From Eledone cirrhosa (lineage: Eukaryota): a DNA stretch of 64,000 nt. Under the pieces are notes generated by a model, which ran no database searches, was not told the DNA's origin, and saw only the letters and a program-made list of their open reading frames with translations. Shown here one piece after another: positions 34,970 through 36,805 of the stretch (the stretch's first letter is position 1; every line of letters begins with the position of its first letter). The DNA lies in NCBI GenBank assembly GCA_964016885.1, contig OZ024751.1, positions 38,688,001 to 38,752,000 on the forward strand, in the 5' to 3' direction. The translations under genes were made by a program, and so were the position numbers.

Positions 34970-36805
34970 TTTATATACTTATATATATATATATATATAT
35001 ACATATATAATATATATATATATATATATATATATATATATATATATATGTATATATATATATATATATGTATATATATATATATATATATATATGTATA
35101 TATATATATATATATGTATATATATATATATATATATATATATATATATATATGTATATATATATATATATATATATGTATATATATGTATATATATATG
35201 TATATATATGTATATATATATATATATATATATATATATATATATATATATATATATATATATATATATATATGTATATATATGTATATATATATATATA
35301 TATATATATATATATATATGTATATATATGTATATATATATATATATATATATATATGTATATATATATATATATATATATATATATATGTATATATATA
35401 TATATATATATATATATATATGTATATATATATATATATATATGTATATATTTATATATGTATATATATATATATATATTTATATATGTATATATTTATA
35501 TATGTATATATATATATATATTTATATGTATATATTTATATATGTATATATATATATATATATATTTATATATGTATATATTTATATATGTATATATATA
35601 TATATATTTATATATGTATATATATATATATGTATATATATATATATATATATATATATATATATATGTATATATATATATATATATATGTATATATATA
35701 TATATGTATATATATATATATGTATATATATATATATGTATATATATATATATATATATATACATGTATATATATATATATATACATATATATATATATA
35801 TATATACATGTATATATAGGAACAAGGGGTCTTACTTGTTCCTATTTCCCACTCTACTACCCTAAGTATTGAGTACTTTGGTGCGTTATGGTCCACCTGG
35901 TTCCTTACCACATTTCCTTCGTTATATATATATATATATATATGTATATATATATATATATATATATATATATATGTATATATATATATATATATATATA
36001 TATATATATGTATATATATATATATATATATGTATATATATATATATGTATATATATATATATGTATATATATGTATATATATATATATGTATATATATA
36101 TATATGTATATATATATATATGTATATATATATATATGTATATATATATATATATGTATATATATATATATGTATATATATATATATGTATATATATATA
36201 TGTATATATATATATGTATATATATATATATGTATATATATATATATGTATATATATATATATGTATATATATATATGTATATATATATATGTATATATA
36301 TATATATATGTATATATATATATATATATATATATATATATATATTATATGTATATATATATATATATGTATATATATATATATGTATATATATATATGT
36401 ATATATATATATATATATATATATATGTATATATATATATATGTATATATATATATATGTATATATATATATATATATATATATATATGTATATATATAT
36501 ATATGTATATATATATATATATGTATATATATATATGTATATATATATATATATATAATGTATATATATATATATATATAATGTATATATATATATATAT
36601 ATGTATATATATATATATATATATGTATATATATATATATATATATAATCTATATATATGTATGTATATACATATATACATATATATATATATATGTATG
36701 TACATATGTATATAGATATATATGATAAATATATATATATATGTACATATATGTATGTGTGTGTGTATATGCACACACACATATATATATATATATATAT
36801 ATATG
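34970..36805. repeat. Degenerate (TA)n array with TATG interruptions, split by element A4
   Basis: Direct reading. Confidence 0.95.
35819..35923 (+). mobile_element. Family A element, copy A4 (minimal)
   Basis: 8-bp inverted arm ggaacaag, then ggggtcttacttgttcc and the tail; TA flanks. Confidence 0.85.

Follow-up and report, generated by a model that had tools for sequence, protein, structure and literature searches.

Genomic footprints consistent with in vivo hammerhead cleavage in a minor class of copies of a Penelope-like element of Eledone cirrhosa

The copies of a Penelope-like element (PLE) in the Eledone cirrhosa genome, here called family A, include a small class that ends exactly at the predicted cleavage site of the element's own hammerhead ribozyme. 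Judging from the genomic copies, the ribozyme probably cleaves part of the long transcripts in vivo, and this class, to which copy A4 of the analysed DNA probably belongs, was probably copied from the cut RNA. Most copies of family A were made from uncut RNA, which was probably shorter. The evidence consists of a peak of arm ends at the cut, a coupling of the two arms of the insertions, and insertions of tail-like sequences between the two predicted product ends.

The window is a stretch of 64,000 nucleotides (G000:C11:38688001-38752000) of the 3.0 Gb genome. All positions with a sign are counted from the predicted hammerhead cut, position 0 being the first G 3' of it.

Family A as a Penelope-like element

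The 28-nt anchor near the 3' end of family A has 21,983 exact matches in the genome. In long copies this end is linked to a long non-coding stretch and to reverse transcriptase (RT) and GIY-YIG fragments; in L121 and L124 the RT and endonuclease fragments are joined to the family-A end, as in EN+ PLEs. Among the Atlas neighbours, RVT_1 occurs in 12-42% of members and GIY-YIG in 23%. Pfam had no match for the family-A ORF fragments, a PDB sequence search likewise named none, and no intact full-length ORF was seen among the fragments linked to the family. The insertions have the anatomy of PLEs, with a partial-tandem pLTR, an inverted 5'-truncated neighbour copy and a one-sided tail, and 71 of the 100 unbiased copies possess an adjoining inverted arm. 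They sit in TA repeats, corresponding to the (TA)n targets of the Hydra clade.

Further Hydra-clade motifs in L121 and L124 are the CxCX5C linker and the CxxC and CxH around E and N. RWR stands in place of RWK in the family-A fragments, and CCHH is absent as judged by eye. The RT fragment linked to the family ends short of the DKT motif, and fragments with DKT in L212 and L309 are not tied to family A. By its motifs, and not by a tree, family A is a Penelope-like retrotransposon with Hydra-clade motifs. A non-LTR retrozyme was considered and rejected, the copies being dispersed truncations of an ORF-bearing element and not tandem non-coding monomers. In L124 the repeat continues beyond +99 into the ORF, with a methionine at about +190, so that the inverted arms (from +19) and the forward arms (from about +98) each start within the RNA and not at its end; the hammerhead lies about 190 nt upstream of the element's ORF.

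Other elements occur next to family-A copies, namely a broken LINE-type RT frame (L122:2252-4463, minus strand) and another PLE, in which a CxxC precedes the GIY-YIG (L123:1020-1964, plus strand).

The predicted hammerhead

The 5' half of the ribozyme is mostly missing from the window, and long copies elsewhere in the genome hold it. The cut had initially been predicted from the 3' half; in long copies the hammerhead is complete, and the minimum-energy fold of L066 puts the cut at the same GUC/G, in a type I hammerhead with a three-way junction and an NUH triplet. The fold energy of L066 is not better than that of shuffled sequences (z -0.12). In ensemble pairing, helices I-III all reach at least 0.75 in 7 of 14 copies, stand at about 0.4 in three and are largely lost in four, in most cases because a hairpin that masks the GAAA strand competes with them. 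Between -31 and -1 the 3' strands of helix II and helix III are identical in sequence, which allows the RNA to alternate between the ribozyme and this hairpin, where the catalytic GAAA is masked; in the predicted folds the balance of the two differs from one subfamily to another.

Loop II is long. The 3-8 pair is U3-A8 in 15 of the 19 long copies with a recognisable core, a C3-A8 mismatch in three and G3-A8 in one. The Rfam hammerhead models had no match in a long family-A copy. For self-cleavage at the predicted bond the evidence is indirect and consists of the genomic footprints described below.

Arm ends at the predicted cut

The unbiased sample comprises all of the first 100 listed anchor matches. 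Their forward arms start beyond -90 in 7 copies, at -46 to -31 in 56, at -30 to -2 in 16, at -1 to +1 in 2 (2-3 at the site) and beyond +1 in 19; on visual inspection, L036 is better placed at -1 to +2 and L116 on the 3' side of the site. Some three quarters of the copies thus read through the cut site, and the dominant end position lies elsewhere. These 100 copies alone form an underpowered sample and display no peak at the cut. Identity-ranked matches were left out of the histogram because their query began at the cut; of the 30 listed, only A4 started there. A junction list covering -7 to +7 hinted at a local excess at 0.

Exact counts across the genome, made with similar filters, gave 197 forward starts at 0, 46 at +1 and 51 at -1, as well as 34 at -4 (counted for one variant only). 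Of the inverted-arm ends, 187 fall on position 0, against 41 on +1 and 30 on -2. The ratios of the site to its neighbours are 3.5-6.2, with a binomial P of at most 2e-19 in all five comparisons. The counts cover forward positions 0, +1, -1 and -4 and inverted positions 0, +1 and -2. The peak is present in all three main sequence variants. Relative to the 19,868 forward arms that are unbroken between 0 and +23, the at-site class makes up about 1% of copies (197/19,868), perhaps 2% after allowing for filter losses. The forward-arm 5' ends thus form, locally, the sharp one-nucleotide peak at GUC/G that the initial annotation expected, and the inverted arms show it too. The main mode of the truncation points lies 31-46 nt upstream of the cut, on RNA that had not been cut.

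Inspection by eye of 100 of the 197 forward starts at 0 revealed 5 read-through copies in which one C is missing, 5 insertions, and 14 microhomology joins that may be assigned to any position from 0 to +2; joins of this last kind account for 15 of the 46 copies at +1. In six copies (L172, L229, L236, L252, L265 and L207) the sequence reads through and the C before the cut is missing or replaced. Comparable losses of a single base also occur at -2 (4/51), so these copies were not taken as evidence. In a RAD-seq run and in contigs, depth rises at -43 to -34 and the inverted-arm end at +19 is visible; at that depth there is no step or insertion at the cut, a result that is uninformative for a class of 1-2%.

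The main mode upstream of the cut

Most ends of both kinds of arm fall at -31 to -46, in a quasi-palindrome within loop II, often with A/T-rich spacers. If this zone were a barrier on long RNA, at which 56 of 63 copies stop, its passage by 10 of the 12 tailed copies described below would have a probability of 2e-8. It is more likely that most templates begin at -31 to -46, either by an internal start or as transcripts of short copies, and from either source they would lack the 5' half of the ribozyme. Family A has a motif at -41 that we take to be initiator-like; an extra G derived from a cap is not evident at -41 (G in 11 of 71).

Coupling of the two arms and added letters

An adjoining inverted arm is present in 55 of the 100 viewed copies whose forward arm starts at 0. 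This inverted arm also ends at 0 in 19 of the 55, against none of the 71 unbiased copies (P 2e-8), and fails to cross the cut in 32 of the 55 against one of the 71 (P 6e-14). Paired ends at the site are 2-6 letters apart, and these letters are mostly A or T. In 76 of the 100 at-site copies, about 19 of them from the noise classes, a T precedes the first G, equivalent to an A added to the cDNA. We interpret the coupling and the added A as the trace of an RT running off a physical 5' end of the RNA. Both untemplated addition and template jumping have been demonstrated for the R2 RT (PMC8857657).

Insertions between the predicted product ends

Copies with 2-12 extra letters within -4 to +2 were sought irrespective of the exact position, and the 82 matches were sorted by eye. 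Most are tandem duplications; 13-14 are uninformative expansions of the G run, three represent junctions of arms, one is a replacement that sets in a base too early, and another carries just 2 extra nt at the site. All nine non-duplicative inserts of at least 5 nt, from eight loci, separate the C from the G of the cut, with an uncertainty of one base in a single case, and no such insert was found at the seven other boundaries in -4 to +2. The position-selected sets contributed four more inserts of 18-32 nt, including a run of 28 A in L200. Of the 12 tails, which all differ, nine are A-rich on the RNA strand, two T-rich and one mixed. The ribozyme is complete in 10 of these 12 copies; in the unbiased sample, 81 copies extend to the site and only 7 of them hold the whole ribozyme (P 1e-7). 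Tailed copies unite the two predicted product ends, separated by foreign letters, for which a transcription start alone does not account. The length of the inserts and a base bias opposite to that of run-off additions suggest that the letters are RNA tails rather than additions by the RT.

Among ten unresolved arm ends at +1 or -2 that served as controls, none has a tail followed by clean resumption, L345 being partly tail-like and L350 placeable at 0 to -2. Ten arm ends at 0 comprise one tail and two jumps into the 5' region of the ORF. In L205, L337 and L338 (G000:C1:265276685, C4:28047083 and C4:50584695) an arm stops at the cut and is followed by sequence from the 5' region of the ORF, as if the cut end had been joined to a downstream 3' end, in a circular RNA or by a jump.

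The copy L330 (G000:C7:18516350-18516425) has the same 5-nt insert at the cut in both arms. An insert that the template already contained, or fold-back copying, explains this better than a single jump does, and the copy bears on the origin of the arms, i.e., on two primings versus fold-back copying.

Among the ten tailed copies in which the ribozyme is complete, three (L315, L322 and L331) have the mismatched C3-A8 core. The two uninterrupted copies with this core are predicted to misfold, so that cutting in C3-A8 copies would require a partner RNA or protein.

Copy A4 and the other copies of the window

Copy A4 (35816-35925) is an end piece of 100 bp, 5'-truncated, of a Hydra-like Penelope element, flanked on both sides by long TA microsatellites and arranged as (TA)n, inverted arm, forward unit and (TA)n (Table 1). 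It is one of six copies identical across 99 nt and stands outside the 197 at-site copies, as it fails one filter. The inverted arm measures 8 bp (35819-35826), or 11 bp from 35816 if three letters in common with the TA flank are counted.

Table 1. Features of family-A copies in the window, with signed positions relative to the predicted cut
Feature	Position	Strand	Remarks
A4 forward arm	35826..35925	+	pLTR end, 5'-truncated; 0 to +99 from the predicted cut
A4 inverted arm	35816..35826	-	11 nt (+19 to +9); does not reach across the cut
Predicted hammerhead helix I, 3' strand	35826..35830	+	fold of long copy L066 and ensemble pairing
A4 "tail" between the fixed arm starts	35846..35925	+	+19 (inverted) to about +98 (forward)
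Left TA microsatellite, target	34967..35815	.	approximate limits
Right TA microsatellite, target	35926..36845	.	approximate limits
Copy A3	31513..31670	+	inverted arm crosses the cut (31572); forward start between -5 and -2
Copy A2	16256..16587	+	diverged subfamily; both arms cross the cut (16488)
Copy A1	11330..11536	-	both arms cross the cut (forward-arm cut 11428); ends in the -31 to -46 zone

The forward unit of A4 does begin at the predicted cut, as initially annotated, and its first G is common to the inverted arm. This G35826, the predicted 5'-OH end of the 3' cleavage product, fits both arms, and the forward start is accordingly position 0 or +1. With a short inverted arm that fails to cross the cut, A4 looks like a typical member of the at-site class. 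The start of A3 had been placed 5 nt upstream of the cut, at 31567; its forward arm can be read from there, but the first three letters also form the end of the inverted arm, which widens the start to the range given in Table 1. In all of A1, A2 and A3 both arms cross the predicted cut, and the long inverted arm of A2 extends into the 5' half of the ribozyme.

One exact case among the four copies of the window is, taken alone, within chance, unlike the counts across the genome. The proposal that the RNA template of A4 was the 3' self-cleavage product is partly supported: for the family it is likely as the origin of a minor class, beside a main mode of uncut RNA, and for A4 itself it is probable. 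We consider it fairly probable, from the sequence of its junction and its class, that A4 was copied from ribozyme-cut RNA; the reservation stems from the 1-nt microhomology at the junction and from a background that amounts to about a quarter of the starts at the site.

The window contains further repeats. A second hairpin family in TA repeats (26009-26114) has a canonical hammerhead core in both arms (26063 on the plus and 26056 on the minus strand), and fold-back repeats lie beside TA microsatellites at 21118-21273 and 27994-28106. An Rfam search of the window gave microsatellite-driven miRNA matches among the matches listed (150 of 288).

Origin of the cut-site class

In the mechanism that we propose, long transcripts with a whole ribozyme would sometimes be cut at GUC/G in the germ line. 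The RT would run off the new 5' end, typically adding one to a few A, and would sometimes jump to the 3' end of the upstream product, which would often bear an oligo(A), mixed or U-rich tail. With less weight, we suggest that most copies come from shorter RNAs that start 41-46 nt above the cut and would be unable to cut themselves. As such RNAs lack the 5' half of the ribozyme, the latter would act on read-through transcripts, from which it would free an RNA of nearly unit length, similar to R2, while being dispensable for transposition.

A pause of the RT at the three-way junction of uncut RNA, where it would stop after helix I, add letters and drop off or resume, has the advantage that the cut site is a helix junction too, that the majority of templates are uncut, and that copies with a mismatched core are covered as no catalysis is necessary. 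We regard it as improbable: a stall before helix III predicts ends at -1 or -2, both of which are at background (51 and 30), run-off favours A on the cDNA whereas 9 of the 12 inserts, the run of 28 A included, are rich in A on the RNA strand, which is the opposite bias, and such inserts are absent from the other seven boundaries. Any physical 5' end, whatever its origin, accounts for the peak and for the coupling of the arms, and a minor transcription start or a host nuclease cut might coincide with this G; promoters are present in PLE terminal repeats (PMC6765202). A start yields no RNA ending exactly at the preceding C, however, as the tailed insertions need, and the match to the predicted scissile bond is exact to the nucleotide; a host nuclease would be compatible with these data. 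We give this reading slightly less credence still than a pause. An origin of the peak in a few master copies starting at the site, in duplicated loci or in assembly error is the least credible reading and largely refuted. A few duplicates are indeed listed (L234 and L240 at two places each; L214 and L215), and the G-run expansions at the site (13-14/82) may be homopolymer errors; but the 100 at-site copies differ in flanks and spacers and span three variants, and the 12 tails are all distinct.

The doubt that weighs most concerns A4 alone. The family may be cut in vivo while A4 is an ordinary microhomology join that fell on the site by chance, a reading that we find unlikely although it has to be reckoned with. 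The G common to its two arms fits such a join, neighbouring positions reach about a quarter of the count at 0, and for microhomology joins with a long inverted arm the excess of 0 over +1 is less than twofold (14 of 100 listed versus 15 of 46). The inverted arm of A4 stops short of the cut, however, which distinguishes at-site from unbiased copies (32/55 versus 1/71).

Cleavage of some long transcripts, with A4-like copies made from the cut RNA, is the reading we prefer. Extended to its full form it becomes tentative, and we put it forward as a possibility somewhat short of an even chance. The copies would then preserve, like fossils, the two products of PLE hammerhead cleavage in the germ line. 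The upstream product would be healed and receive a tail, either oligo(A), mixed or U-rich, and the PLE's RT would jump onto it from the downstream product. The usual RNA would start inside loop II, which disarms the ribozyme, and the latter would fire only on read-through transcripts, trimming them to nearly the same 5' end. If true, PLE hammerheads would gain a defined in vivo job and an activity that can be scored from any assembly.

Comparison with known systems

The element class, the anatomy of its insertions, the U3-A8 hammerhead and the recording of cuts by R2 junctions are already known. A search of titles and abstract openings in mostly open-access literature found no report of cut-site peaks or tailed insertions in PLEs, and no paper was found that combines a polyadenylated ribozyme cleavage product with template switching by a retrotransposon. 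In vivo cutting by PLE hammerheads has been described as open. In family A, genomic copies alone resolve the cut to one nucleotide, and the two product ends can be seen within a single molecule. The three counts used (arm ends, arm coupling and tailed insertions) can be applied to any PLE-rich assembly.

Family A resembles the Hydra-clade EN+ PLEs, as described by Craig et al. 2021 (PMC8557442), in its RWK-like motif, the CxCX5C, the CxxC and CxH around E and N, the lack of CCHH, the TA targets, the hammerhead, the inverted 5'-truncated copy and the tail. It differs in a tail of about 80 nt instead of 30-40 nt and in a hammerhead with a U3-A8 core and a long loop II. The function of the hammerhead in EN+ PLEs is called unclear in that account, which in its treatment of Hydra-clade PLEs reports none of the junction footprints found in family A. 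The U3-A8 variant is known from the Cercyon PLEs of Schistosoma (Cervera and de la Pena 2014, PMC4209133), where self-scission of PLEs was proposed without in vivo evidence. Unlike in Cercyon as characterised there, helix III of family A has its full 5-6 bp, so that a monomer could fold, and a competing hairpin can hide the GAAA strand.

With Poseidon PAc of the lizard Anolis carolinensis (Frangieh et al. 2024, PMC11167929) family A shares two internal RT starts that define the tail, the extension of both target strands, and uncut RNA as the main substrate. In the PAc experiments reported there, no RNA-seq reads began or ended at the cut, and cleavage was not needed by the reconstituted PLE. 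The genomic copies of family A, by contrast, keep a minor but exact footprint of both product ends. These views can be reconciled if cleavage occurs, as is likely, on a minority of templates.

A further parallel is R2, whose HDV-like ribozyme leaves genomic 5' junctions that record the cut together with untemplated additions (Eickbush et al. 2013, PMC3774820), and whose RT jumps between separate templates after untemplated addition (PMC8857657). Ribozyme and element class are different, and while the R2 cut sets the 5' ends of full-length copies (PMC3774820), that of family A is found in only 1-2% of copies. Unlike R2 in that description, family A probably also captures tailed upstream products.
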